DNA from: Candidatus Omnitrophota bacterium
GTDB taxonomy: Bacteria > Omnitrophota > Gorgyraeia > JABMRG01 > JAFGKX01
Length of the DNA: 62,267 bases
Direction of reading: 5' to 3'
Assembly (NCBI GenBank): GCA_043797125.1
Contig: JAZDPX010000042.1
Coordinates: 1-62,267 of the forward strand
The stretch itself is not shown here. The text below is the continuation of a report on this DNA, generated by a model with database tools.

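Follow-up and report, generated by a model that had tools for sequence, protein, structure and literature searches.

The closest relatives of the PRODH domain of the 7,941-aa giant protein are PRODH-like proteins of ~520 aa (P0001, P0002, P0004–P0007, and P0009), one gene for which is located as follows:

L001/L002, 8001–9566: gene for a PRODH-like protein of this group

All of these ~520-aa proteins have a signal peptide at the N-terminus. The signal of P0009 contains a textbook twin-arginine motif, DRRVFLK, and those of the remaining relatives terminate at ASA|SGQPEE. The signal peptides suggest that the PRODH family has an exported (periplasmic) branch, represented by these relatives. To our knowledge, no such branch has been described. 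The ~520-aa proteins differ from the giant's domain in that the RRLLE block, one of the PRODH hallmarks, is replaced by GRRFxEL. In L001/L002, the PRODH-like gene is flanked by an RHH/PIN toxin-antitoxin pair on one side and a MacAB-TolC-like efflux operon on the other.

The opposite end of the giant is a conserved module comprising its first ~790 residues, which can be divided into a Cys/Met-type PLP enzyme domain and an extension of ~350 residues with no assigned function. The Thr-Lys at the PLP-lysine motif is conserved. The module and its homologues are positioned as follows:

Window 3769–6168, + strand: N-terminal module of the giant (aa 1–800)
L003 3755–6118; L004; L005; L006 ~4228–6207: PLP-module homologues

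Three metagenomic contigs encode the module as a standalone secreted protein. In a MAG of Omnitrophica WOR_2, the module lies inside an ORF that is at least 2,359 aa long and is preceded there by transmembrane helices. The N-terminal module is evidently exported, and the export of a PLP-dependent lyase is unusual.

Residues ~3564–3611 of the giant (window 14458–14601) form an unbroken hydrophobic run of 45–56 residues, both flanks of which are rich in lysine and arginine. The stretch is the crux of the ambiguity in the topology of the whole giant: the stretch and the N-terminal signal peptide are at odds, unless the former spans the membrane a single time or a further helix upstream was overlooked. 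Residues ~1479–1538 (window 8203–8382) match the last 60 residues of Peptidase_M32 (carboxypeptidase Taq) below the threshold (E 1e-5, 24.8 bits versus a cutoff of 25.1). This segment could be either a metallopeptidase module that has diverged or a remnant.

All of the roughly 20 real-looking genes in window 1–62267, drawn from the list of ORFs of at least 150 aa, are on the + strand, and the GC skew is positive throughout. The search for tRNA and Rfam matches within the 62-kb window returned none, and four large ORFs neighboring the giant gene have no Pfam match:

Window 20–3766: ORF of 1,248 aa, upstream of the giant
Window 37920–41075: ORF of 1,051 aa
Window 47454–50084: ORF of 876 aa
Window 54437–57316: ORF of 959 aa

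The stop codon of the 1,248-aa ORF is separated by 2 nt from the start codon of the giant gene. These two genes (GC 0.36–0.43, GC3 0.34–0.46) are richer in AT than the downstream sugar-utilisation genes (GC 0.43–0.48, GC3 0.45–0.56). A palindrome lies within the 241 nt that separate the giant gene from the ORF after it:

Window 27786–27815: perfect palindrome, 13-bp stem with 8 G-C pairs, 4-nt loop

There is no T-tract at the palindrome, which could act as a terminator, as a hairpin for RNA processing, or as a site to which a protein binds.

The Logan contig L003, which encodes a standalone PLP-module homologue, ends ~24 nt into the start of a 16S rRNA gene (10084–10107). The 1,134-aa ORF preceding the homologue is unrelated to the 1,248-aa ORF of the window. 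The product of the gene that follows the homologue (6144–8486) is 780 aa long and contains the domains Hexokinase_1 and Hexokinase_2, which are of the eukaryote type; a giant protein from Omnitrophota is reported to carry several copies of hexokinase domains (bioRxiv 10.64898/2026.06.07.730766).
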